64,000 bases of DNA, taken from assembly GCA_002478945.1 (NCBI GenBank), contig DLKM01000026.1, forward strand, positions 348 through 64,347. The letters run 5' to 3'. The position numbers and the translations under genes are program-made. This DNA is from Christensenella sp. UBA7588. GTDB lineage: Bacteria; Bacillota; Clostridia; Christensenellales; CAG-917. The stretch's first letter is position 1. Each line of letters begins with the position of its first letter. This document shows, piece after piece, positions 641-60,281 of this stretch. A model generated the notes under the pieces. That model was not told where the DNA came from. It did not search any database and saw only the letters and a program-made list of their open reading frames with translations.

Positions 641-974
641 TTAATAGAGTGCGTCGTAACTCCTCTAAATACAATAACCCCCTCTTTCCGGACACGCCGG
701 TATTTCTCCCACCACTCGTATAAGGGCAATTCTCTACAACATTGTCCGTCGCTCGTGGGGGCGACAAGACGCGATTGACGCAAAGCGTAACAATCGCTAT
801 TCCGTCGCTACGCTCCTTACGGCACTCACATAGATAGGGACATTTCTCTCGTTGTGCCACTGCGCTTTGTGCGCCAGCTACGCAACAACACGGCGCAGTC
901 GCTTGTACTAATCGTCAAGTTCGGCACTCAAAGGCTCGCCACCTTGCGGCTCGAAATTCCGTCTCCGAAATAAT
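641..974 (+). repeat. Dispersed structured intergenic element, copy A (core)
   Basis: Shares CCCCCTCTTTCCGGACACGCCGGTATTTCTCCCACCACTCG with copy D. Shares GGCACTCACATAGATAGG with B/D/E. Shares GCGCTTTGTGCGCC...GGCGCAGTCGCTTGTACTAATCGTCAAGTTCGGCACTCAAAGGCTCGCC.CCTTGCGGCTCGAAATTCCGTCTCCGAA with C/E. Confidence 0.85.
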
Positions 975-1042
975 GAAAATCAACGTATTTGCGACAACCA
1001 TTCACTCTACAATGAGTGTAATATTGAGATGAAGAACAAGGA

Positions 1043-1105
1043 AGATGCGTTTGCACGGCAACCCTAATTTACTTATGGTAAATGAGTTGACGGACAAATG
1101 CGTCT
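1043..1105 (+). repeat. Long-hairpin module H1 (variable basal stem, conserved apex CAACCCTAATTTAC-loop-GTAAATGAGTTG)
   Basis: AGATGCGTTTG pairs with CAAATGCGTCT. The apex is near-identical to the module at 60175-60237. Flanks are CAAGGAAG and CTGACG. Confidence 0.7.
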
Positions 1106-1174
1106 GACGATGTTATTCGCTCAATAGTGCGTTCAAACTCGTTTAACCACGATATTTGCGCGTTAGGCAAGGAA

Positions 1175-4416: not shown

Positions 4417-6615
4417 TTAACCTCTTTTATAATAGTTGATAAGGCAACCGTCGGCTATTATTTGTTTTTCGGCTTCGGTAAGTGCGTCCATATGAACGTT
4501 TATTCTTTGAGCCTTGCAGTCGCGCACGAGGTACGCTTCAAAATCTTTGCCGTGCAACACGCTGTCTCTTGCGTTTGCTATTACGACGACGTCGCCTTTT
4601 CTATACTGCGTTTCGCTATCCAACAGCGGCAACATACCCCAGTTTATAAGATTCGAGCGGTATCTCTTTGTGGCGTATTCTCTTGCGATATTTGCGCCAC
4701 CGCCCAAAAAGCGTTGGCAACTTGCCGCCTGCTCTCTTGCGCTGCCGTCTCCCGGCTTTCTTGCGAATATACAAGAATTTATCGTCGTATCGTCCACATT
4801 CAATCCGCAAAGACGAATCGCTTTTTTCACGTCCTCGTTGTCGCTGTCTCTGACCTGCTTGCTTTCTTTGACGTACGCAGGGTCTTTCCTCGACAGCGCA
4901 AATTCGGCAAGTCGCAACGGATTGCTCCTGTAAGACGACGTTTCTCCCGAAGGTATAAGTTCGTCCGTAGTCGTAACGGGGTCCTCGATAACCGAGCAGA
5001 CTTTGAGTGCGAGATTCGTTTTGAGCGGTTCGATTGTCGGAATATCCGTAATATTAGGTCCGTAAACGAGTTCAACGGACGAATCGGCTTTGCCGAAACC
5101 GTCGTATACTCTCGAAGCATATACTTGCGGATTGTATTCGAACTTTTCAAATTCGTCGTCAAAGTCCATATCGAGCGCAGACGTCAACACTCCTCCGTTT
5201 GCGGCGGTTGCCGCAATGGAGCGTGCGTCCATAAGCGCAACGGAAGCAATTTGCTTGTCGGCAGGTTTGCTTCCCTCTCTGCGTTCAAAATTCCTCGTCG
5301 TATGCCTTATGCTGAAACCGTTGTTGCAAGGCACGTCTCCCGCGCCGAAACACGGTCCGCAAAAACAAGGCTTGACGATTGCTCCGCTCTCTATGAAATT
5401 TGCAATCGCTCCGTTTTTGACGAGAGCGTAATTTGTCGGTTGAGAACCGGGATAGATTGTCAGCGAAAACTCTCCTTCCCCGACGCTCTTGCCTTTAAGT
5501 ATGTTTGCGGCGCACATAAGATTGTCGTAAGTACCGCCTGCGCAACCTGCGATAACGCCTTGAGACACGACGACTTTGCCGTCCTTGATTTTGTCCGTCA
5601 ACTTAAATTCGCCGTCAAGTCCGAGCAATGCGTTGCCGTCTTTTTCGACTTGAGACAAAATCTCGTACGGATGAGCGATAACGTCGGCAAGTTTATATAC
5701 GTTGGACGGATGAAACGGAAGCGCAATCATCGGTTCGACCTTTGACAAATCTATCACGATGCCTGCGTCGTATTCTGCGCCGTCTTTCGGCTCGAGCGTT
5801 TCGTAATCGTTCTCTCTGCCGTAAGCGCTAAGATACTCTCTGACCTTTTCGTCTGTACGCCATACGCTTGACAGACACGCGCTTTCCGTGGTCATAACGT
5901 CGATGCCGTTTCTATATTCCACCGACAAACCGTCTATTCCGTCTCCGACAAACTCCAATACGGCGTTTTTTACAAATCCGTTTTTGAATACCGCTCCGAT
6001 AAGAGCAAGCGCGACGTCTTGCGGACCTACGCCTTTACGCACTTTGCCCGTAAGTTCCACAGCAATTACGCGAGGATAATCTACGTCGTAGGTACGTCCC
6101 AACAGTTGTTTGACAAGCTCGGGGCCGCCCTCTCCGATTGCAATCGTGCCGAGCGCGCCGTATCTCGTGTGCGAGTCGCTGCCGAGAATCATCTTGCCGC
6201 AACCTGCAAATCGCTCCCTCATATAACTATGTATAACCGCAACGTTTGCAGGAACGTAAATTCCGCCGTACTTTTTTGCGCAGGACAGACCGAAAACGTG
6301 GTCGTCCTCGTTTATCGTGCCGCCTACCGCGCAAAGCGAGTTATGGCAGTTGGTAAGAACGTACGGAACGGGAAATTCTTTAAGTCCGCTTGCCTTTGCG
6401 GATTGAATGATGCCGACGTACGTTATATCGTGCGACGCCAACGCGTCGAAACGCACGTTGAGCTTTTTATCGTCGCCGCCAACGCTGTGTTTTGACAAAA
6501 TTCCATAAGCGATAGTGCCTTTTTTGTCGCATTTCACGCCTTTTTCGTGAGCCTCGTTTTCGTCGACGAGACGACGCGAGACGTAACAAACTTTTTTGTC
6601 GATAAGTTTTATCAT
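4417..6615 (-). CDS. Aconitase-family hydratase (putative aconitate hydratase)
   Basis: 732 aa with Fe-S ligand regions ILGSDSHTRYG and CFCGPCFG, and a C-terminal swivel-domain-like segment (GDGSAREQAA...INWG). Confidence 0.8.
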   Translation of the reverse strand: MIKLIDKKVCYVSRRLVDENEAHEKGVKCDKKGTIAYGILSKHSVGGDDKKLNVRFDALASHDITYVGIIQSAKASGLKEFPVPYVLTNCHNSLCAVGGTINEDDHVFGLSCAKKYGGIYVPANVAVIHSYMRERFAGCGKMILGSDSHTRYGALGTIAIGEGGPELVKQLLGRTYDVDYPRVIAVELTGKVRKGVGPQDVALALIGAVFKNGFVKNAVLEFVGDGIDGLSVEYRNGIDVMTTESACLSSVWRTDEKVREYLSAYGRENDYETLEPKDGAEYDAGIVIDLSKVEPMIALPFHPSNVYKLADVIAHPYEILSQVEKDGNALLGLDGEFKLTDKIKDGKVVVSQGVIAGCAGGTYDNLMCAANILKGKSVGEGEFSLTIYPGSQPTNYALVKNGAIANFIESGAIVKPCFCGPCFGAGDVPCNNGFSIRHTTRNFERREGSKPADKQIASVALMDARSIAATAANGGVLTSALDMDFDDEFEKFEYNPQVYASRVYDGFGKADSSVELVYGPNITDIPTIEPLKTNLALKVCSVIEDPVTTTDELIPSGETSSYRSNPLRLAEFALSRKDPAYVKESKQVRDSDNEDVKKAIRLCGLNVDDTTINSCIFARKPGDGSAREQAASCQRFLGGGANIAREYATKRYRSNLINWGMLPLLDSETQYRKGDVVVIANARDSVLHGKDFEAYLVRDCKAQRINVHMDALTEAEKQIIADGCLINYYKRG

Positions 6616-6681: not shown

Positions 6682-7152
6682 TTATTTTTTGTTTTTATCT
6701 TTCTTTTCGGGAGTGAAAACCTCAACTATAACGTCTCCTCTGTGCGCACGCAGTTGAGCAATGAAATCGTCGACTTTCTGAGTCGGGATATTCACTCTGA
6801 AACTGATATTTCCGTCCGTTTCCTTCACGCCTTTCGTGATAAGGTAGATTTCTCTCGTTTCGCTGTTTTGTTTTACGCAAACGATGTCCGAATAGCCGAA
6901 TTTGTCGACGAAAACGCCCAAAGACGTGACGAGAATGTAGTCTTTGAACTTGTAGTAACTGTTGAAAATCATAAGCAATGCCAAAACGGCAATGAGAACT
7001 GCCGCGCCGAGCGACACTCCCGCTATGGCAGGTTCTGCAGAAACGCTGCCTACAAGCATCGCTATATCTACGCCGACGATTGCAAGCGCGCCTGCAACGA
7101 TAAGCGCAAGCAAAACGGTTTTTACTATACCGAAATACATTCTGAATTTCAT
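6682..7152 (-). CDS. Membrane protein, two N-terminal TM helices plus a small soluble (bPH-like) domain
   Basis: 156-aa ORF with a hydrophobic N-terminus. RBS AGGAGCGG. Confidence 0.5.
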   Translation of the reverse strand: MKFRMYFGIVKTVLLALIVAGALAIVGVDIAMLVGSVSAEPAIAGVSLGAAVLIAVLALLMIFNSYYKFKDYILVTSLGVFVDKFGYSDIVCVKQNSETREIYLITKGVKETDGNISFRVNIPTQKVDDFIAQLRAHRGDVIVEVFTPEKKDKNKK

Positions 7153-7183
7153 AATCCGCTCCTATTTACGATATTTGGCAACC

Positions 7184-20979: not shown

Positions 20980-21984
20980 ATGAGTGTAACATTTGAAGGT
21001 TATGAAAGAAGAATAGACAAAATCAACGGCGTTCTTGCTCAATACGGCATCAAGGACCTCGAAGAAGCAAGAGACCTCTGCCTCTCCAAAGGCGTTGATT
21101 GCAACGCAATCGTCAAAGGCATTCAACCTATCTGCTTTGAAAACGCAGTTTGGGCATACACCGTCGGATGCGCAATCGCAATCAAGAAAAATTGCGTAAA
21201 CGCGGCAGACGCGGCAGAAGCTATCGGCGAAGGTTTGCAATCGTTCTGCATCCCCGGCTCCGTTGCAGAGCAACGTAAAGTCGGTCTCGGACACGGCAAC
21301 CTCGCGGCAATGCTCCTCAGAGAAAGCACCAAGTGCTTCGCTTTCCTCGCAGGTCACGAATCGTTTGCGGCGGCAGAAGGCGCAATCGGCATTGCAAGAA
21401 CTGCAAACAAAGTCAGAAAAACTCCGCTCAAAGTCATCCTCAACGGTCTCGGCAAAGACGCGGCATTTATCATCTCTCGTATCAACGGCTTCACTTACGT
21501 CCAAACCAAAATGGACTACTTCAGCGGCGAAGTGAAAGTTGTCAAAGAGACTCCCTACTCCAACGGCGAGCGCGCGGCAGTCAGAGTGTACGGCGCAGAC
21601 GACGTAACCGAAGGCGTTGCGATTATGCGTCTCGAGGACGTTGACGTTTCTATCACGGGCAACTCCACCAACCCCACTCGTTTCCAACACCCCGTCGCAG
21701 GCACTTACAAGAAATGGTGCGTTGACAACGGCAAAAAATACTTCTCCGTTGCGTCAGGTGGCGGCACGGGTCGTACTCTCCACCCCGATAATATGGCGGC
21801 AGGTCCTGCGTCCTACGGTATGACCGACACGATGGGTAGAATGCACTCCGACGCACAATTTGCAGGTTCTTCATCCGTTCCCGCACACGTCGAAATGATG
21901 GGCTTAATCGGTATGGGCAACAACCCGATGGTCGGTGCAAGCGTTGCTTGCGCAGTCGCAGTACAAGAAGGTTTGACAAAGTAA
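20980..21984 (+). CDS. GGGtGRT family protein (function unknown)
   Basis: Contains the eponymous ASGGGTGRTLHP motif. Confidence 0.75.
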   Translation: MSVTFEGYERRIDKINGVLAQYGIKDLEEARDLCLSKGVDCNAIVKGIQPICFENAVWAYTVGCAIAIKKNCVNAADAAEAIGEGLQSFCIPGSVAEQRKVGLGHGNLAAMLLRESTKCFAFLAGHESFAAAEGAIGIARTANKVRKTPLKVILNGLGKDAAFIISRINGFTYVQTKMDYFSGEVKVVKETPYSNGERAAVRVYGADDVTEGVAIMRLEDVDVSITGNSTNPTRFQHPVAGTYKKWCVDNGKKYFSVASGGGTGRTLHPDNMAAGPASYGMTDTMGRMHSDAQFAGSSSVPAHVEMMGLIGMGNNPMVGASVACAVAVQEGLTK

Positions 21985-22333
21985 GTTGTGCGCAAAGCAA
22001 CGATTGATTGTTTGCGTAGCAAATAGCACCAGTAACACAAAAGGCACTCAACAGAGTGCCTTTTCTGGTGCAGAATAATCGGTCGCTTGTGCAGTAGCAG
22101 TACAAGAAGGTCTCACGAAGTAATCGTTTGCACAAGCGAACGAAAAATCTTTGCGTAAGCAAAGTAGAACCAAAACACAAAAGCACCTGAAAAGGTGCTT
22201 TTTGGGTTCTATAAATTGCGTTGCTTGCGCAGTCGCTGTTCAAGAAGGTTTGACGAAGTAAGAAAAACCTACTAAATAGTAGCATTTTGAAGAATATAGC
22301 ACCTATCCAAAAATTGCGATAGGTGCTATTTTT
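21943..22333 (+). repeat. Tandem array (period ~137-140 bp) of the last 13 codons plus stop of the GGGtGRT gene, each copy followed by its own terminator
   Basis: The 42-nt copies lie at 21943-21984 (in the gene), 22082-22123 and 22220-22261. All translate to VACAVAVQEGLTK-stop. Terminator hairpins lie at 22043-22066, 22182-22203 and 22297-22333. Confidence 0.9.
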
Positions 22334-22480
22334 ATATCTAAGAGTGTTCCGTTTGGGAAAGAAATGTAAACAATGTTTACCGTTTGTTTACCGAATTTTA
22401 AAAACGCAAAAACCCACCGTTGGATGGGGTTTCGCTATATTCAACTTCTTATTATCTTTTTTATTTGTAACATTTTAAGA

Positions 22481-22891
22481 CTACATATCTAAAACTAAAT
22501 TTTTAGTCAATTCTATAGCGTTATATATTGGCAATTGAATAGTTGACATGCCCGGTTGAGTCGTAACCAATGATATTTGACTACGCAAATATGGCAACAT
22601 TATAGCAACAGTATTTGTCTTGAGCATTGACAACTGAATCTCCTTATCTAAAATTTCAGCGTTGACAAGCTCAAAATCAGCTTGTTCACACGCCGTAACA
22701 TTCAGATCTCCTTGCCCCTTTATGGTTAGCATTATAACTACTCTTACAGATTTTTCCGTAAGTTTTCTATATTTAATATCAAAACTAGCATCAGCCTCAA
22801 TCTTTCCTATATAATCTACATTTCTTGAGATACACATACTAGGAAAGCATAAATTATACATCTTAAGTAATCCTTGTATGTTAGTTTCCAT
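22481..22891 (-). CDS. SecB-like chaperone (TAC system chaperone)
   Basis: VRVVIMLTIKG...ACEQADFEL...AIMLPYLRSQISLVTTQPGMSTIQLPIYNA parallels E. coli SecB VVLRVTVTA...LCEVQQGGIF...[41 protein letters not shown] lies 12 nt after the higA stop. Confidence 0.7.
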   Translation of the reverse strand: METNIQGLLKMYNLCFPSMCISRNVDYIGKIEADASFDIKYRKLTEKSVRVVIMLTIKGQGDLNVTACEQADFELVNAEILDKEIQLSMLKTNTVAIMLPYLRSQISLVTTQPGMSTIQLPIYNAIELTKNLVLDM

Positions 22892-22903
22892 AATACACCT
22901 CTT

Positions 22904-23272
22904 TTAAGCAGCATATACCGCTGAGTTAATAATTATCTTTTTCCCTACTGACAAATCTTCAACTGGCATAAACAGTTCGGTATTCTGTTTGTTTTCAGAT
23001 ATCTCGAATCTGCTTTTGTATGATTCTTCTTTTCCAAGTTGGAATAACTCATATTTTTTTTGTTGATACAGCAAACTATCAGCCGGATATCCTGTTGCCT
23101 TTTCAAAAGCAGCTGCCATCAATGTTGTGACGCTTCTCTTTCCTGCTAGCATACTACTAATTACAGTTTTATTTACATTCATCTCTTTTGCAAGCCATTT
23201 TTGAGATTTGTTAATTGACATTAAAACTGTTCGCATTATGCTTCCAGGATGAACGCAATAATCTTTTTCCAT
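22904..23272 (-). CDS. higA: HigA-type XRE-HTH antitoxin with a C-terminal extension (candidate chaperone-addiction segment)
   Basis: HPGSIMRTVLMSINKSQKWLAKEMNVNKTVISSMLAGKRSVTTLMAAAFEKATG is a HigA-like HTH. It is followed by a ~45-aa tail. Start at MEKDY, preceded by AAAGGAG. Confidence 0.75.
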   Translation of the reverse strand: MEKDYCVHPGSIMRTVLMSINKSQKWLAKEMNVNKTVISSMLAGKRSVTTLMAAAFEKATGYPADSLLYQQKKYELFQLGKEESYKSRFEISENKQNTELFMPVEDLSVGKKIIINSAVYAA

Positions 23273-23331
23273 ATTCATATCTCCTTTTATATTTAAAGCA
23301 ATACATCTATAACATAATATGATATGTATTG

Positions 23332-23652
23332 TCATAATCTATACTTATGTTTGTCTATTTTTATTATCTCAATTTCAATCCCTTGATTACAACGTTTTAG
23401 ATAAAGCCTATAAAGACTTTTTTTCTTTTTAGGAATAATCCTTAGTGAATACTTGTCAATTGTCCCTTGAACCTTTTCATAGTTATACCCATGGAAATTT
23501 CTCATTAGATCAATATTGTTAATTGATTCTAGCATAGAAATTAAGACTTTTAAACACATCACCAATTCTTTATTATGGTTAAAAAACTTGTTCATTTCTT
23601 TCTCGCTTGAACAAAGTTTTTCTATTTCATTATTGGCATATGTAATTATCAT
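23332..23652 (-). CDS. higB: HigB-like (plasmid-maintenance killer / RelE-fold) toxin
   Basis: Toxin-first gene order. Pattern ...DLMRNFHGYNYEKVQG..DKYSLRI....RLYLKR......IEIIKIDKHKY matches the HigB family layout. Start trimmed to MIITYANNE. Confidence 0.65.
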   Translation of the reverse strand: MIITYANNEIEKLCSSEKEMNKFFNHNKELVMCLKVLISMLESINNIDLMRNFHGYNYEKVQGTIDKYSLRIIPKKKKSLYRLYLKRCNQGIEIEIIKIDKHKYRL

Positions 23653-23678
23653 AGATCCTATACTTCCCCAAAACAATG

Positions 23679-23733
23679 GTTAACAATTTTTGTTAACTAA
23701 GGATATTATATATAAGGAAAACTTATATTTCAA
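23679..23733 (-). promoter_or_regulatory. TAC promoter with an operator-like inverted repeat
   Basis: Minus strand reads TTGAAA-17 nt-TATAAT (23733-23705). An 8-3-8 inverted repeat GTTAACAA-AAA-TTGTTAAC (23679-23697) lies just downstream of the -10 element. Confidence 0.65.
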
Positions 23734-23871
23734 GCATTTTAACGAACTTTTTTAAGTTTTTAATAAATCGCACTTTATTGTCACCAACAATACTCTTAGA
23801 AAACAGAGCTTACAATATTTAACCTCCACAAGAATTAAAAATTTCCAAGAGATAACAAATATATTAAATAA

Positions 23872-23970
23872 AGTATTTTGATATTGCTAGATATCAATTT
23901 TGGAATTACTGCAATGTTGCTTGCAGCTGTAACAATTCAAAAAAGACTTATAAGGCAAGTTAAACTTTAA
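23872..23970 (+). pseudogene. Possible relic 3' end of a divergent, AT-rich GGGtGRT-family gene
   Basis: Translates to ...NFGITAMLLAAVTIQKRLIRQVKL-stop, compared with the host gene end NPMVGASVACAVAVQEGLTK-stop. Shares TTGCTTGC at the nucleotide level. Similarity is weak. Confidence 0.35.
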
Positions 23971-24053
23971 AACAATCCCGTTTCGCCACTTTTATTTGCG
24001 TTATAGAGTTTTAAATTTATAATGTCTTAATTATTAATTTCAGTAAAAAACTT

Positions 24054-24734: not shown

Positions 24735-26102
24735 TTATTGTTCGCGAACAATATCGGTTTGAGCGAAATTCTTGATTTCTTTCATATGTGCGTTTGCTTC
24801 TTCAAACGTGTTTTGCGGAGAGCCTTTATGCACGTAAGTCTTGCGCTTAAGCACGAAGAAGAATTTGCCGTCAGCCGCTTCAATCGTGTAAGTACCGATA
24901 ATGGCGTGAGATTTGAAACGATTGATTGCTCTTTCGCAGAACTCTTTCGTCGTGTAGTTGGAACTCTCGTAAATATTGTTTCCGCTGGCGTCGTAGAGAG
25001 TATAGAAATACTCTTGAGAGCCGTCGGGCTTATCGACGTGTTCTATAACGTATTTACCGTAAATGACGGACTCGTCAAAGCCTGCGACCTTTTCGGGAGT
25101 TTTACGAACGTTCTTGGGCGTTTTGAGTGCCGCAAACGGAGGCGCGACTTTCTTGATGACGACCTTTTTATCCTTGTTTGCATTGAGGGCTTCGAGTTCT
25201 GCCTCTTTTGCCGCAAGTTTCTTTGCGAGAGCGGCAGACGGAGTGCCTTCGTAGTAGCAAGCGTCCTCGGGGTCGTAATAATAACCCTCATAGGTGCCGT
25301 CATACTTGGACCAATCGTCGGGTTTCTTCTTGACGACCTTCTTCGTAGTCGGCTTCTCAACGCCTTTCTTTACAGGAACTTCTTCCTTGACAGGTTCGGG
25401 TTCGACTACGGGTTCTTCCTTGACAGGTTCCTCTTTAACGGGAGCAGGTTCTTCTTTTTCGGCTACGGGTTCAGCCTCTTGAACGGGCGCAACCTCTTGA
25501 ACGGGTTCTGCAACTGGTTCTGCAGGGACAACGGGTTCTGCGGGAGCGGGTGTTTCGACAGCCTCGACAGGTGCAGGTTCTTGTACGGGAGCAGGTTTTT
25601 CTTTAACTTCCTCTTTCACAGGCTCTGCAACGGGTTCCGCAACGGGTTCCGCAGGAGCGACGGTTTCCGCTACGGGTTCCGCCACGGTTTCTTCTTTAAC
25701 CTCGTCGGCGGCAACTTGCTCTTGAACTTGTTCTTGCGCTTGTGCCTCCTCTGCGACAGGTTCGTCCTGCACTACGGGTTCCTCTCTCTGCTCTTGAACG
25801 GGTTGTTCGTCAACGTCGGGAACTACGGGAACGTCGTCGACGTCGTCAACGTCGTTACCTTTCAGTTTATTGCGCAATCTCGCAAGTTTCTGATTGAGGC
25901 GCAATTCCTCGCCCGTAACGCCGTATTCGGAATAAAACTCGTTTTCCTCTTTGTCCTCTTGAGCGTCTTTCTTTTCTTTGACCGCTTTCAAAATATTGAA
26001 AATGAGAACGGCAATAAGCGCCGCCGCTGCCAATGCGAGAGCAATGATAATCACGAGTGCGCTAAAACCATCGATAGGACCGAGTTTGAGGTTATCTAAC
26101 AT
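24735..26102 (-). CDS. Membrane-anchored protein with an E/P/V/A-rich spacer and a C-terminal tandem YegP (DUF1508)-like domain
   Basis: N-terminal TM helix (FSALVIIIALALAAAALIAVLIF). Repeats of the EPVAEPVAEPV type. C-terminus YGKYVIEHVDKPDGSQEYFYTLYDASGNNIYESSNYTTKEFCERAI...DGKFFFVLKRK resembles YegP repeats. Confidence 0.65.
   Translation of the reverse strand: MLDNLKLGPIDGFSALVIIIALALAAAALIAVLIFNILKAVKEKKDAQEDKEENEFYSEYGVTGEELRLNQKLARLRNKLKGNDVDDVDDVPVVPDVDEQPVQEQREEPVVQDEPVAEEAQAQEQVQEQVAADEVKEETVAEPVAETVAPAEPVAEPVAEPVKEEVKEKPAPVQEPAPVEAVETPAPAEPVVPAEPVAEPVQEVAPVQEAEPVAEKEEPAPVKEEPVKEEPVVEPEPVKEEVPVKKGVEKPTTKKVVKKKPDDWSKYDGTYEGYYYDPEDACYYEGTPSAALAKKLAAKEAELEALNANKDKKVVIKKVAPPFAALKTPKNVRKTPEKVAGFDESVIYGKYVIEHVDKPDGSQEYFYTLYDASGNNIYESSNYTTKEFCERAINRFKSHAIIGTYTIEAADGKFFFVLKRKTYVHKGSPQNTFEEANAHMKEIKNFAQTDIVREQ
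25385..25820 (-). repeat. Low-complexity coding repeat (P/E/V/A-rich) inside the YegP-like gene
   Basis: Reiterated GAACC/GGTTC-rich short units. They also create a full-length antisense shadow ORF. Confidence 0.8.
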
Positions 26103-30989: not shown

Positions 30990-31410
30990 AATGCAACTTA
31001 CCCCCCCTTCCTCAGGTGTTTCCCCTAAATTAACACTCTAACAAAGTTAGCGTCATAATTCCTTGAATGCAACATTACCCCTTCCCTTCGGGCTTTCCCC
31101 TATTGCTCAAATAGATGTCATTTCTCTTTTTAAGCAAACATCGTTCGCAAGAGGGGAACTCGGCACTCACATAGATAGGTATCGTTCACTTGTTATGCCA
31201 CTCGTTCGCCAACGAAAAGAACAACACTCGTTGGCTCACTTGTACAATCCGTCAAGTTCGGCACTCAAAGGCTCGCCGCCTTGCGGCTCGAAGCTCCGAA
31301 TAAGCACATTCAGTTTATAGGTACGCCTTGAATAGGCACATTCCGTTAATAAGTGCGCTTCGAATAAGTGTGCGTTCGGGTGTGGGCAAAGCCCACCCGC
31401 AATTATTAAC
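30990..31410 (+). repeat. Dispersed structured intergenic element, copy B (duplicated pyrimidine block, iteron-rich right end)
   Basis: AATGCAACTTACCCCCCCTTCCTCAGGTGTTTCCCCT plus a second AATGCAACATTACCCCTTCCCTTCGGGCTTTCCCCT. Also CTCGGCACTCACATAGATAGGTATCGTTCACTTGTTATGCCAC, GTCAAGTTCGGCACTCAAAGGCTCGCCGCCTTGCGGCTCGAA and a terminal GTGGGC-AAA-GCCCAC hairpin. Confidence 0.85.
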
Positions 31411-31429
31411 TATTAACTTTATCAAAGCG

Positions 31430-35683: not shown

Positions 35684-35823
35684 GCAAAAATGCTGTGGCA
35701 ATGGCAACACGCACTCGTGCGTATTGCCAACTATGGCACTCAAAAACAACCTTGCAAGTGCTTTGCGCTTTATTTTTCATATATCCGCCCATTTACTCGC
35801 GAGCGAGACGGGGCGAATATATG

Positions 35824-35860
35824 AAAAAACAACCTCACGGTTTTCGCAAGGTTGTTTTTT
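35824..35860. terminator. Bidirectional intrinsic terminator (ABC operon and tRNA-Leu)
   Basis: AAAAAACAACCT-loop-AGGTTGTTTTTT. Confidence 0.8.
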
Positions 35861-35863
35861 CGT

Positions 35864-35951
35864 TGGTGCCGGCGGTCGGACTCGAACCGACACGGATGAT
35901 TAGTCCACAGGATTTTGAGTCCAGCGCGTCTGCCAGTTTCACCACGCCGGC
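35864..35951 (-). tRNA. tRNA-Leu (anticodon CAA), class II with a long variable arm and encoded CCA
   Basis: Minus strand reads GCCGGCG...CTGGA-CTCAAAA-TCCTG...GGTTCGAGTCCGACCGCCGGCACCA. The acceptor stem is 7 bp. There is one U-U mismatch in the anticodon stem. Confidence 0.85.
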
Positions 35952-43404: not shown

Positions 43405-44316
43405 TTAGTCTTTTTTCAGGGATTTGAGGTCGTATCCCAGTTCTTTCATAATGTAGTCGTTGTCGCGCCACTCGTCTTTCACTCTGACGTACAGAGTCAA
43501 AAACACTTGCATTCCTATCATTTGCTCGAGGTCTTTTCTTGCTTTCGTGGCAATTTGTTTGAGCATCTCTCCGCCCTTGCCGATAACGATTGCTTTGTGC
43601 GATTGCTTTTCGCAGATTATGTCGGCGTCAATGTCGACTATGGGTTGTCCTTCTCTTTCCTCAAACTTGTTGATGTAAACGCCGATGCCGTAAGGCACTT
43701 CTTTGTCGAGAAGATAAAGAGCCTTTTCTCTTATAATCTCCGACGCCATAAAACGCATACTGCTTTCGGTGTACATATCCTCGGGATACATCGGCACGCC
43801 CTCGGGCAACAAATCGACGAGTTCTTTTTTGAGAGGTTCGAGATTGTCCCCTTTCTTTGCGGAAATCGGCACGATTGCTTTGAGCGATTCGATGCCGTTG
43901 AGTTTTTGCAATGTCGCAAACATCGTCTCTCTCGTCACGCAATCTTCTTTGTTGAGCGCAACCACAACAGGCACTTTCTTTGCGTTTTTCTCCAAAAACT
44001 CGTAATCTTCTTTCTGCATACCTCTCGACGCGTCGATAACGTACACGACGCCGTCCACGTCTTTCATAGAATTATCAACCGCTTGCATCATATACTCTCC
44101 GAGATGATTGCGCACTTTGTGGATACCAGGAGTATCGATAAGCACCATTTGATAATCGTCTCCGTTTACAATGCCGAGCAATTTATTTCTGGTGGTCTGC
44201 GGTCTCCACGATACGATTGACACTTTCTCTCCCACGAGAGCGTTGGTAAGCGTAGACTTGCCTGCGTTTGCAAGTCCTGCGATACAAATAAATCCGCTTT
44301 TGAAATTTTCGTACAT
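43405..44316 (-). CDS. era: GTPase Era
   Basis: G1 GLANAGKST, G3 DTPG, G4 NKED, and a C-terminal KH domain. Start trimmed to MYENFKSGF, preceded by GAAAGG. Confidence 0.95.
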   Translation of the reverse strand: MYENFKSGFICIAGLANAGKSTLTNALVGEKVSIVSWRPQTTRNKLLGIVNGDDYQMVLIDTPGIHKVRNHLGEYMMQAVDNSMKDVDGVVYVIDASRGMQKEDYEFLEKNAKKVPVVVALNKEDCVTRETMFATLQKLNGIESLKAIVPISAKKGDNLEPLKKELVDLLPEGVPMYPEDMYTESSMRFMASEIIREKALYLLDKEVPYGIGVYINKFEEREGQPIVDIDADIICEKQSHKAIVIGKGGEMLKQIATKARKDLEQMIGMQVFLTLYVRVKDEWRDNDYIMKELGYDLKSLKKD

Positions 44317-44387
44317 ATATTTACCTTTCGTGTTAGTTTTATATAGCTTTACGCAACTTTGATTGAGTTGCAATAACTTTTAGCATA

Positions 44388-44730
44388 AATACAACTTTCC
44401 CCCTTCCTCAGGTGTTTCCCCTATTCCGTTCCCCCTCTGCGCAATGCTTGAGGGAACCCACGGAACCGCTCCGCGGGGGGACACACTCGGTCTTCGCATA
44501 AATAGGGACTTTCGTCTTATTATGTCACGCGCTTTGTGCGCCGCTACGCAACGGAATGGCGCAGTGCTTGTACTAATTCGTCAAGCTCGACACTCGATTT
44601 GCTCGCCGCCTTGCGGCTCGAATTCCGTCTCCGAATAAGGTTTATTTTATCAACCTCAATGCCGCCTTGCGGCTCGAAATTCCGTCTCCGAATAAGAATA
44701 CTAGGTGTGGGCAACGCCCACCCTCAATTA
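44388..44730 (+). repeat. Dispersed structured intergenic element, copy C (fills the whole ybeY-era spacer)
   Basis: Near-identical to copy E over about 240 nt. The GCCGCCTTGCGGCTCGAA(A)TTCCGTCTCCGAATAAG block is duplicated. Ends with a terminal GTGGGC-AAC-GCCCAC hairpin. Confidence 0.9.
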
Positions 44731-45207
44731 TTATTTCTCGTTTCTTTTTAGGTTTACCATAGCCATAATCGCTTTTTGATGAGCAATCATAACTTTTTCG
44801 TCGGCAGGTTCGATATGGTCAAATCCGAGAATGTGCAAAAAGCCGTGACACGCCAAAAAGCCCAACTCTCTCGCATAAGAGTGTCCGTATTCTTCGGCTT
44901 GTTGCATCGCTCTTTGACGACAAATCATTATCGAGCCGAGCATAACTTTTTTTCCGTCGAAATCGCAAGCGGAAAAATCTTGCGGATATACGGGCAAATC
45001 GAGCGGAGCAAAACACGGAAAACTCAATACGTCCGTCACTTTGTCCACGCCTCTTGCTTCTCTGTTGAGGTCTCTTATGGTTTCTTCGTCGACGATAGTG
45101 ATGTCCGTCACGAAGAAATCTCGTTGTTTCAGATGTCTGAAACACGCTTTTTCCACTCTTTTTATCAGCATTTTTTCGCTGAATTTTGCACCCGAAATTC
45201 TAATCAT
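44731..45207 (-). CDS. ybeY: rRNA maturation endoribonuclease YbeY
   Basis: HGFLHILGFDH metal motif. Confidence 0.95.
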   Translation of the reverse strand: MIRISGAKFSEKMLIKRVEKACFRHLKQRDFFVTDITIVDEETIRDLNREARGVDKVTDVLSFPCFAPLDLPVYPQDFSACDFDGKKVMLGSIMICRQRAMQQAEEYGHSYARELGFLACHGFLHILGFDHIEPADEKVMIAHQKAIMAMVNLKRNEK

Positions 45208-57474: not shown

Positions 57475-57750
57475 TTAATAGAGTGCATTATACCACTCTA
57501 AATGCAACTTTCCCCCTCTTTCCGGACACGCCGGTATTTCTCCCACCACTCGGTTAGTGACATTTCTCTACAATATTATTCATCGCTCGTGGGGGCGACA
57601 CTCGGCACTCACATAGATAGGTATCGTTCACTTGTTATGTCACTCGTTCGCAAACGAAAGAACAACACTCGTTTGCTCACTTGTACTATCCGTCAAGTTC
57701 GGCGCTCAATCGCTCGCCGCCTTGCGGCTCGAAATCACGCCTTCGAAAGA
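57475..57750 (+). repeat. Dispersed structured intergenic element, copy D (between the topoisomerase B and A genes)
   Basis: The left half matches copy A (TTAATAGAGTGC...CCCCCTCTTTCCGGACACGCCGGTATTTCTCCCACCACTCG). The right half matches copy B (CTCGGCACTCACATAGATAGGTATCGTTCACTTGTTATG.CAC TCGTTCGC.AACGA...). Confidence 0.9.
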
Positions 57751-59804: not shown

Positions 59805-59871
59805 GGAAAATCGGAAACAAATATACTTAACAAATAATAAAAATAAATTCTGTATTTTCAAAATTACTTTT

Positions 59872-60118
59872 AATGCAAGTTTCCCCCTTCCTCAGGTGTT
59901 TCCCCTATTCCGTTCCCCCTCTGCGCAATGCTTGAGGGAACCCACGGAACTGCTCCGCAGGGGGCAACACTCAGCACTCGCATAGATAGGGGCAATTCTC
60001 TAATTATGCCACGCGCTTTGTGCGCCGCTACGCAACAGAATGGCGCAGTCGCTTGTACTAATCGTCAAGCTCGGCGTTCGATTTGCTCGCCGCCTTGCGA
60101 CTCGAAACTTCGATTAAG
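59872..60118 (+). repeat. Dispersed structured intergenic element, copy E
   Basis: Near-identical to copy C: AATGCAAGTTTCCCCCTTCCTCAGGTGTTTCCCCTATTCCGTTCCCCCTCTGCGCAATGCTTGAGGGAACCCACGGAAC... Confidence 0.9.
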
Positions 60119-60130
60119 TTTCCGTTATTT

Positions 60131-60281
60131 TTTCATCAATGATTTAAGAGAGAATATCCGTCATAGAACAAGAAAGAGCCACGCTCTCGGCAACCCTAAT
60201 TTACTAATCGTAAATGAGTTGTCGAGAGTGTGGCTCTGACGCAGTTATCTGGCGGATAGTCCGCTTAAATCATTGATGAAA
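60131..60281 (+). repeat. Long-hairpin module enclosed by an 18-bp inverted repeat that includes the last 5 codons and stop of the hydrolase gene
   Basis: TTTCATCAATGATTTAAG (60131-60148) is the inverted repeat of CTTAAATCATTGATGAAA (60264-60281). The inner 16-bp stem is AGAGCCACGCTCTCGG/GTCGAGAGTGTGGCTCT (60175-60237), with the same apex as H1. Confidence 0.8.

Follow-up and report, generated by a model that had tools for sequence, protein, structure and literature searches.

Why should spacers between unrelated housekeeping genes contain the same long, structured, non-coding sequence? The question is raised by a stretch of 64,000 nucleotides (nt) from Christensenella sp. UBA7588 (assembly GCA_002478945.1, contig DLKM01000026.1; the window, in what follows), in which one modular element lies in five intergenic spacers. 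A preliminary description of the window saw in the element either a structured 5′-untranslated region (5′-UTR) or intercistronic RNA, or a non-autonomous element moved as single-stranded DNA, and held that the second idea would explain the strict agreement of the five copies in strand. The analysis reported here shows the element to be a previously undescribed repeat family of a clade of uncultured human-gut Christensenella-like Clostridia. On balance, the element is probably a mosaic interspersed repeat of the kind represented by BOX, bacterial interspersed mosaic elements (BIMEs) and SPRITE, that is, a non-coding, non-autonomous and recombining repeat that would be propagated in trans and would be under strand-specific constraint on its fold.

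A conserved fold in a clade-restricted repeat family

A repeat search and an alignment of the five spacers place the copies at 641–974 (A), 30990–31410 (B), 44388–44730 (C), 57475–57750 (D) and 59872–60118 (E), all on the minus strand and with their shared blocks in the same order. The most conserved stretch, the 22-mer TTCGAGYCGCAAGGYGGCGAGC, is present in five places, each on the minus strand, where 100 dinucleotide-preserving shuffles give an expectation of 0.00, and the covariance model built for the core of the element (R1) matches the window only in the five known places (142–163 bits); the three approaches agree with the preliminary description on number, place and strand. Core identity among the window copies is 62–89%. 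No reading frame is conserved among them, the longest stop-free run in the worst copy being 24–31 codons in each of the six frames; the coding hypothesis was rejected because the frame is not kept across copies, as had been supposed.

The anatomy is read here on the element strand, which is the minus strand of the window. The core, of ~150 nt, begins with the hairpin H1 (C-GA-GCCGC-AAG-GCGGC-GA-G), the flanking tandem GA/GA of which is invariant in 114/114 complete copies while its stem covaries (CG 61, UA 41, GC 6 and UG 6 at one pair; the closing pair alternates between C-G and G-C). The long-range helix P2 pairs two GAGYGCCGA blocks (TCGGCRCTC on the plus strand), formerly taken for direct repeats; it contains two tandem G.A motifs and single-base bulges, four of its pairs are changed on both sides, and its outer GA/GA is swapped for Watson-Crick UU/AA in 10 copies. 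The M2 and M5 variants of copy C are unlike those of copy A, yet by the P2 pair count they still pair with each other. P2 spans 100–280 nt and closes a multi-branch junction that encloses H3 (UUGAC-N4-GUaCAA) and H4; the latter is the centre of which two types, x and y, had been distinguished, and these have the loop GUGUUGUU in common on unrelated stems, with all six pairs of the main stem covarying. Optional inserts (H3x, I1 and I2, described below) sit at a hairpin loop or at a junction, and the rest of the fold stays intact.

In an alignment of 31 hand-collected cores, 96.4% of the cells of H1, P2 and H3 are paired, as against 24–45% when the partners are slid by 1–3 columns, and eight pairs show double changes, a result reached in 0/500 shuffles. 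Among 131 distinct model-aligned copies, double changes affect 17/25 pairs (419 such cells; 0/500 shuffles), in an alignment that was fitted to the model and thus leans towards it. The 3′ domain of type 2 forms a three-way junction in which seven pairs carry compensatory double changes; RNAalifold finds no compensatory pairs in the 3′ domain of type 1, and a candidate hairpin, H5, pairing GGCATAA with CTATCTATG, was dropped since its pairing is inconsistent across copies by inspection. The proposal that the element is structured is thus upheld, with covariation far above both shuffles and slid controls: it is statistically supported for a defined fold, as is generically asked of structured RNAs, by a measure to which RNA and single-stranded DNA look alike.

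As to which strand folds, and in what chemical form, the invariant GA/GA would be CT/CT on the opposite strand, and outside H3 G.U pairs outnumber A.C pairs (30 vs 8), both of which are suggestive of the element strand in single-stranded form; within H3 there is no strand preference (23 vs 21). Minimum-free-energy z-scores of single copies are weak on both strands (−1.95 and −3.19) and do not tell the folded strand apart. The span of P2, the architecture of the junction and the placing of inserts at loops and junctions look RNA-like. In DNA, too, the many 3-nt loops and the tandem G.A pairs are very stable, and 3-nt loops such as AAG, GGA, GAA and GTT are commoner in DNA hairpins than in selected RNAs. 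A fold that acts as RNA, arising by read-through or local transcription, is modestly preferred to one that acts as single-stranded DNA.

The family extends well beyond the window. A search of species-representative genomes with the 22-mer returned 36 stretches, 32 of them in metagenome-assembled genomes (MAGs) labelled Christensenella sp., Clostridia, Clostridiales or Bacillota or in a bin labelled Butyrivibrio crossotus; the other four (Armatimonadota, Azoarcus, Myxococcales and Pseudomonadota) are about what chance would give. A slightly relaxed pattern matched metagenome contigs in 65 stretches, almost every one of them from a human-gut assembly, and no copies were found among viral contigs, a phage collection and a plasmid collection. 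Over the window and 97 fetched loci (767 kb; loci are given L numbers below), the core model gave 136 matches, which merge to 121 copies with a median core identity of 66%. No Rfam family is matched, as the preliminary description had anticipated: in Rfam 15 the window gives, at gathering threshold and at E ≤ 5, only tRNA-Leu and chance matches outside the element, and 18 related loci (138 kb) with all module types give 0 matches at gathering threshold. No account of the element was found in the literature searched by sequence and by keywords, and the main text of a catalogue of structured RNAs of the human microbiome (PMC8040213), supplements aside, mentions neither Christensenella nor transposons nor multi-copy families.

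Module reassortment and turnover between genomes

Comparison of copies gives a fixed module order: T0, S sub-repeats, core, optional I1, 3′ domain and terminal units, with a total length of ~250–700 nt in the window and related loci. T0 consists of AT-rich TAATAATT repeats and a GC hairpin, GGGTGGGC-TTT-GCCCACACC; S is made of alternating 15–19-nt sub-repeats, CTTATTAACGGAATGTG / CTTATTCRAGGCGTA; H3x is an optional insert of ~170 nt with two hairpins within the loop of H3; and I1 is an optional insert of ~48 nt 3′ of the core. The 3′ domain is of one of three alternative types, optionally with an insert of ~90 nt (I2), and is followed by one to three terminal units, which may be repeated in tandem and end in ..AAG(A)GGGGG-N4-TTGCATTTAAGGAGTTACGAC. 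The G-run once read as Shine–Dalgarno (SD)-like is part of this repeated 3′ unit and not the ribosome-binding site of the next gene. Modules keep order and orientation: of the 15 I1 matches, 12 have a core within 400 nt, always on their 5′ side and on the same strand (the other 3 are solitary), and T0 is 5′ of the core on the same strand in 17/18 instances within that distance.

The window copies are composed as follows; U5 is a repeat that adjoins the core in some copies and is treated below.

Copy A: U5, core (x type), I1 and 3′ domain type 1
1028–1137, minus strand: U5, a ~65-nt hairpin with conserved apex and U-rich 3′ tail (repeat D6; 14-instance U5 alignment)
818–967, minus strand: core with H1, P2, H3, H4 of x type and M5 (R1, 162.5 bits)
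768–817, minus strand: I1 hairpin (GCGATTG...CAATCGC) between core and 3′ domain, a 50-nt insert found in A only (I1 alignment)
641–766, minus strand: 3′ domain type 1 and terminal unit (..CCGGCGTGTCCGGAAAGAGGGGG..TATTTAGAGGAGTTACGAC..; nhmmer, alignment)
Copy B: T0, S array, core (y type), 3′ domain type 3 and extra terminal unit
31357–31419, minus strand: T0, TAATAATT repeats and GGGTGGGC-TTT-GCCCACACC hairpin (T0 alignment)
31297–31368, minus strand: S tandem array, CTTATTAACGGAATGTG / CTTATTCRAGGCGTA (Tandem Repeats Finder, period 32, 2.2 copies; 110 distinct upstream sequences)
31159–31304, minus strand: core, H4 of y type (R1, 142.0 bits)
31039–31158, minus strand: 3′ domain type 3, TTCCCCTCTTGCG...AGGGGAAAGCCCGAAGGGAAGGGG (nhmmer, 14 distinct instances; alignment of three)
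30990–31038, minus strand: extra terminal unit of type-2 flavour, GGGGAAACACCTGAGGAAGGGGGGG (31003–31027 identical to 44399–44423 and 59883–59907)
Copy C: T0, duplicated S/H1 unit, core (x type) and 3′ domain type 2
44700–44735, minus strand: T0 hairpin, right after the ybeY stop codon (sequence, alignment)
44634–44699, minus strand: tandem duplicate of the S-unit and 5′ half of H1 (repeat 44605–44636 and 44661–44692, 56 nt apart)
44486–44633, minus strand: core, H4 of x type (R1, 142.9 bits)
44385–44485, minus strand: 3′ domain type 2, three-way junction with C-run/G-run closing helix (23 predicted pairs, 7 compensatory)
Copy D: core (y type) and 3′ domain type 1
57601–57745, minus strand: core, H4 of y type (R1, 142.8 bits)
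57476–57600, minus strand: 3′ domain type 1 (nhmmer, alignment)
Copy E: U5, core (x type) and 3′ domain type 2
60165–60269, minus strand: U5, right after the hydrolase stop codon (repeat D6; terminator-like scan match 60197–60175)
59970–60118, minus strand: core, H4 of x type (R1, 162.3 bits)
59870–59969, minus strand: 3′ domain type 2 (nhmmer, alignment; promoter-like sites of the gyrB-like gene downstream, 59861–59776)

The reassortment of modules noticed at the outset is real, with the correction that the left block (the 3′ domain) has three types and not two: that of copy B, formerly assigned to type 2, is the third type followed by an extra type-2-like terminal unit. The element is also longer and more modular than had been stated, since copies A and E have in common an upstream module of ~100 nt (1033–1137 and 60165–60269) and copies B and C an AT-rich segment with the GGGTGGGC..GCCCACACC hairpin. 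A further module, S2, was seen at L007, L015, L025, L035, L061 and L093 (e.g., L035 ~6750–6850, minus strand); it opens with TTCGAAGACGGAAC of the unit that precedes H1 and then runs into hairpins GACGG..CCGTC and GTCCGC..GCGGAC in place of H1, so that this S-unit looks like a junction common to alternative modules.

Spacers of related genomes differ in whether, and how, they are filled. CP091723.1, whose hydrolase protein is 85% identical to that of the window, is syntenic with the window across hydrolase-gyrB-gyrA-DUF1846: both have the element between hydrolase and gyrB, with different 3′ domains, the gyrB/gyrA spacer is filled in the window only (373 nt vs 74 nt in CP091723) and the gyrA/DUF1846 spacer in CP091723 only (332 nt vs 37 nt in the window). 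A rearrangement between the copy A and B spacers, considered for L018, was rejected, because its 477-aa open reading frame (ORF) corresponds to the N-terminal part of gyrB and gene order at the locus follows that of the window. At 917–2900 of L018 the gyrB of CP091723.1, a complete long-read MAG, is split into overlapping ORFs (917–2350 and 2241–2900), probably by a frameshift error of assembly.

Differences of the same kind occur between closer genomes. Where L061 and L020 have flanks 97.7–98.4% identical, L061 has T0-S-core(y)-type 1 in its pfk spacer, and L020 has there an array of small hairpins, unrelated to the element and with AGTGATATT between them; L015, with flanks 89% identical, has core(x)-type 2 at the same site in the opposite orientation. 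That array belongs to another repeat family, absent from the window, of tandem small hairpins with variable stems (among them GCACC-GTA-GGTGC and TGTGC-TAC-GCACA), each followed by AGTGATATT, which was seen at L020 2595–2720, L019 ~7100–7160 and L045 ~5040–5100. Between L039 and L084 (flanks 94–97% identical), a complete U5 in L084 corresponds to a U5 partly replaced by a core in L039, and a second spacer holds cores in opposite orientations. Paralogous cores are 94–97% identical at unrelated loci of one assembly (ERZ808278), and one strain's core is 98.7% identical to a paralogue and 95.3% to its orthologue, a pattern suggestive of gene conversion.

Orientation, spacer context and the U5 repeat

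The window copies have the neighbours first described: ppa / FAD-dependent glycerol-3-phosphate (G3P) oxidase-like, ybeY / era, gyrB-like / gyrA-like, and alpha/beta-hydrolase / gyrB-like; yabP and yqfD adjoin ybeY, as befits a sporulating member of the Clostridia, here from a gut-type metagenome. Four other assemblies of the copy C region stop inside or at the element that follows ybeY, as assemblies typically do at dispersed repeats. The start of era is ambiguous (44316–44373): the longest ORF begins at a TTG at 44373 (322 aa), ~15 nt from the element, and the public call (303 aa) starts ~57 nt farther downstream.

Elsewhere in the family, orientation does not follow the pattern of the window. 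With genes in the fetched loci called by a codon-usage model trained on those same loci, 65 of the 121 copies run in the direction of their upstream gene and 48 against it; in co-directional spacers 23 copies are sense and 30 antisense to both genes, and 8/20 multi-copy loci are mixed in orientation within 8–15 kb. These counts, like those of spacer type below, are approximate, depending as they do on these gene calls and being inflated by orthologous loci of related genomes that are not independent. The 5/5 strand agreement is therefore a local accident, at most a regional effect, and is not family-wide; with strict strand bias confined to the window, the main argument is gone both for a 5′-UTR or intercistronic RNA and for lagging-strand-biased transposition of single-stranded DNA. 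Spacers with a core number 51 co-directional, 17 convergent and 4 divergent, and those without 313, 58 and 69, so the core is enriched between convergent genes (odds ratio 2.0, p = 0.03) and depleted between divergent ones (odds ratio 0.32, p = 0.03), as is usual for parasitic repeats that are tolerated. Spacers with a core have a median length of 505 nt, and those without one of 84 nt.

U5 is a hairpin of ~65 nt with conserved apex CACGTAC-N6-GTACGTTAGGGTTG, flanks GCGAATARC... and ...CTTGTTCTTCATC and a U-rich tail, in which 14 aligned instances show many compensatory pairs and a conserved U.G. It is found in the window at 1028–1137, 60165–60269 and also 1198–1214, and at L007, L008, L019, L021, L023, L028, L030, L033, L039 and others, with 61 nhmmer matches in all, of which 21 are solitary; it is co-oriented with the upstream gene in 47 cases and opposed in 7. 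Where U5 lies within 400 nt of a core, the core is located beyond it in 32/40 cases and hence mostly outside the transcription units of the neighbouring genes. Its orientation, its solitary instances and its position before the core mark U5 as a separate terminator-like repeat family, which looks like a predicted family of 'branded' intrinsic terminators comparable to pneumococcal SPRITE. The U5 of copy E is scored as terminator-like, and the promoter-like sites of the gyrB-like gene come after that copy; scans of the window copies for sigma-70 promoters and terminators found no conserved signal inside the element.

The window has other features apart from the repeat. A tandem repeat with a 139-nt period (21941–22262; 2.3 copies, 75% matches) lies at and beyond the 3′ end of the plus-strand ORF 20980–21984. 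There is also a low-GC island (22000–24000; 31.9% vs ~46% elsewhere) with three small minus-strand ORFs, one with a weak HTH_3 match, one with a sub-threshold SecB-like match and one with no match, which may be a small foreign or toxin-antitoxin-like insert. At 24735–26102 two ORFs overlap fully on opposite strands (455 aa, minus; 453 aa, plus, 24738–26099), the codon model favouring the minus strand. An imperfect inverted repeat (35742–35859; 49-nt arms, 78% complementary, 20-nt spacer) adjoins the only tRNA gene of the window, tRNA-Leu(CAA) at 35864–35951.

Origin of the element and comparison with known systems

Under the favoured reading of a trans-propagated mosaic repeat, machinery encoded elsewhere in the genome would spread copies among spacers and reshuffle them, with homologous recombination or gene conversion between copies adding to the reshuffling. 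The fold would be the feature recognized, in single-stranded form, by that machinery or by another binding partner, and copies would tend to survive where they are least harmful, past the 3′ ends of genes and on the far side of terminators. Any insulation or termination, or any change in transcript stability, that a copy brings to a neighbouring gene would be a by-product or a secondary co-option, as has been suggested for BOX and SPRITE. Several observations weigh against this reading. Pairing of 96% at a median identity of 66% looks more like purifying selection on resident copies, that is, host function, than like the decay of parasites, and a multi-branch fold with invariant loops and loop-placed insertions would sooner be expected of a functional RNA than of the interspersed repeats now known. 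Comparison of filled and unfilled orthologous spacers reveals no duplication and no exact empty site, the differences being replacements and not clean insertions, and whole-spacer allelic exchange between strains could mimic transposition. No transposase, nuclease, reverse transcriptase, Y1 enzyme or REP-associated tyrosine transposase (RAYT; REP, repetitive extragenic palindrome) is among 27 proteins, either core neighbours or members of recurrent clusters, selected from the ~770 kb around the copies and compared with Pfam; 21 belong to ordinary cellular families (pheS, ffh, ruvB, murB, obg, tgt, yajC, pfk, ABC and P-type transporters and others) and 6 have no match, and an autonomous partner among the flanking ORFs was rejected on this ground, which also speaks for a non-autonomous element. 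The model-based gene calls and the non-independence of orthologous loci behind the orientation and spacer-type statistics belong here as well.

The most plausible of the alternatives, although an unlikely one, is a multi-copy family of stand-alone structured non-coding RNA (ncRNA) genes with their own signals, acting in trans or as protein scaffolds, in which mosaicism would reflect variable peripheral domains. The conserved junction with its long-range helix, the invariant GA/GA and AAG loop, the inserts that leave the fold intact and the pairing retained at low identity all accord with it, as do an orientation independent of the neighbours and the location of most cores beyond terminators, both expected of independent units. 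Against such genes stand the window copies, in which neither a sigma-70-like promoter nor an intrinsic terminator is conserved at a fixed position; the anchored upstream sequences of 110 distinct copies, which show only S sub-repeats; the unusual combination of dozens of copies per genome, within-species presence/absence and tandem module duplications; and the many 3-nt loops better known from DNA hairpins. Next in plausibility, and doubtful, is a single-stranded-DNA element moved by an HUH/Y1 enzyme encoded elsewhere, of the REP/BIME-RAYT or IS200/IS605-palindrome-associated transposable element (PATE) type, with hairpins as enzyme recognition structures. Strand-specific motifs (GA/GA, and G.T over A.C outside H3), compensatory hairpin changes, the lack of terminal inverted repeats, a BIME-like mosaic organization, and GNA-type and other 3-nt loops and tandem G.A pairs that are stable in DNA suit this idea; nothing specific was found in its support, and the strand-bias argument of the preliminary description has gone. 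The mixed orientation (8/20 loci; 23 vs 30) is at odds with the replication-strand bias of IS608/ISDra2-type insertion and, at locus scale, with the replication-tied orientation of PATEs; closure of a multi-branch structure by P2 over 100–280 nt is unlike the short terminal hairpins of REPs or of IS200/IS605 ends; A.C (21) is about as frequent as G.U (23) in H3; and neither Y1 nor RAYT genes were found among the proteins scanned.

The idea that led the preliminary description, a cis-acting structured 5′-UTR or intercistronic RNA that regulates or processes flanking housekeeping mRNAs, is very improbable. It drew on the five window copies, co-oriented between co-directional genes and with an SD-like purine tract 25–140 nt before the next start codon, and is contradicted by the orientation counts (antisense in 30 vs sense in 23) and by the genomic context: 17 copies lie between convergent genes, the neighbours (pheS, ffh, ruvB, murB, obg, tgt/yajC, pfk, transporters) have no common function where a regulatory leader would serve a coherent gene set in sense orientation, the same spacer in close relatives holds either orientation or lacks the element, and in copy E the terminator-like U5 precedes the element and the promoter-like sites follow it. 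Random orientation, spacer types, U5 placement and the signals of copy E together argue against such a role. Last in plausibility, and very improbable too, comes a classical miniature inverted-repeat transposable element (MITE), the deletion derivative of an insertion sequence with a DDE transposase, which would have terminal inverted repeats and target-site duplications. The size range would fit, as would copy number and the location between genes, and in copy E the ends of the core and 3′ domain form a 14-nt inverted repeat that is 86% complementary. This repeat is not shared, copies D and C having none, and in a duplex test on 64 copies a copy's own ends are no better than those of others (265/500 permutations as good), a null result by which a terminal closing helix between S-unit and 3′ unit, prompted by copy E, was rejected; no duplication is visible at polymorphic sites and no transposase is nearby among the proteins scanned. 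There is, finally, a slim chance that the core is the scaffold of a new class of mobile-element RNA, either an ORF-less, trans-acting guide- or bridge-type RNA or an RNA copied back into spacers in the manner of short interspersed nuclear elements (SINEs). An RNA that takes part in its own spread or retention would explain heavy covariation in a selfish repeat without terminal inverted repeats, visible target-site duplications or an ORF.

The trans-propagated mosaic repeat that is favoured here has its closest counterpart in BOX of Streptococcus pneumoniae, a modular boxA-boxB(n)-boxC repeat of 67–637 bp with predicted RNA structure, clade restriction and slow turnover; BOX, RUP and SPRITE are enriched between convergent genes, and these pneumococcal repeats were concluded to be parasitic elements (Croucher et al., 2011; PMC3049150). 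In kind, the present element is a BOX-like modular repeat: non-coding, modular and intergenic, with no encoded protein, of variable length through optional or tandem modules, extensively structured by prediction, oriented either way, commoner than expected between convergent genes, confined to a narrow clade and slow to turn over. It differs in lacking terminal inverted repeats and visible target-site duplications and in its heavily covarying junction with a long-range helix and tandem G.A pairs, whereas BOX has a simple A/C stem and an independent B hairpin; the comparison is one of features, no sequence relationship being expected between different classes of Firmicutes. U5, a neighbour of the core and not the core itself, recalls SPRITE, a pneumococcal repeat resembling a Rho-independent terminator, as a dispersed, conserved long hairpin with a U-rich tail near gene 3′ ends, co-oriented with the gene (47 vs 7) and often solitary (21/61), and differs from it in its conserved apex (CACGTAC..GTACGTTAGGGTTG) and flanks, its terminator role being predicted.

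REPs and BIMEs of enterobacteria and pseudomonads are likewise mosaics of a few motifs in spacers, with compensatory hairpins, strand-specific motifs and a location downstream of genes. REPs, however, are single palindromes of 20–40 nt with a conserved 5′ tetranucleotide, alternating in orientation within BIMEs, and each family has a RAYT gene flanked by REPs; the present element has a junction of ~150 nt and a 3′ domain of ~100 nt, a Firmicute host and no RAYT in the sequence around its copies (27 proteins scanned). ERIC/IRU sequences of enterobacteria are imperfect palindromes in transcribed spacers, in either orientation, ERIC being a single hairpin of ~127 bp. They resemble the element in that longer variants arise by insertion at fixed internal sites and that conservation suggests constraint at the RNA level; they differ in that far fewer module types are known and that ERIC has no long-range junction. 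HEARO and omega-RNAs (of IscB and TnpB) and the bridge RNA of IS110 are multi-copy, multi-helix RNAs of 150–300 nt from elements without terminal inverted repeats, of which ORF-less copies are known; the likeness is conceptual only, in that covariation in a selfish repeat would be accounted for if propagation of the element itself maintained the fold. No Rfam match to HEARO or any other family at E ≤ 5, no IscB, TnpB or IS110 gene beside the 121 copies (27 proteins scanned) and no identifiable guide segment were found.

The family adds a large, well-defined repeat system, a core with at least two companion families, to the small genomes of health-associated and poorly known Christensenella-like Clostridia. 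It accounts for the breaks that assemblies of these organisms show at housekeeping spacers, and it makes of these spacers, which differ between genomes 96–98% identical, strain-level markers. As an unusually clean case of an interspersed repeat that keeps a complex, strand-specific, multi-branch fold at 66% identity, it makes testable whether host function, the repeats' own propagation or gene conversion is what constrains them; should the fold prove to be that of an RNA taking part in mobility, it would represent a new kind of bacterial mobile RNA.

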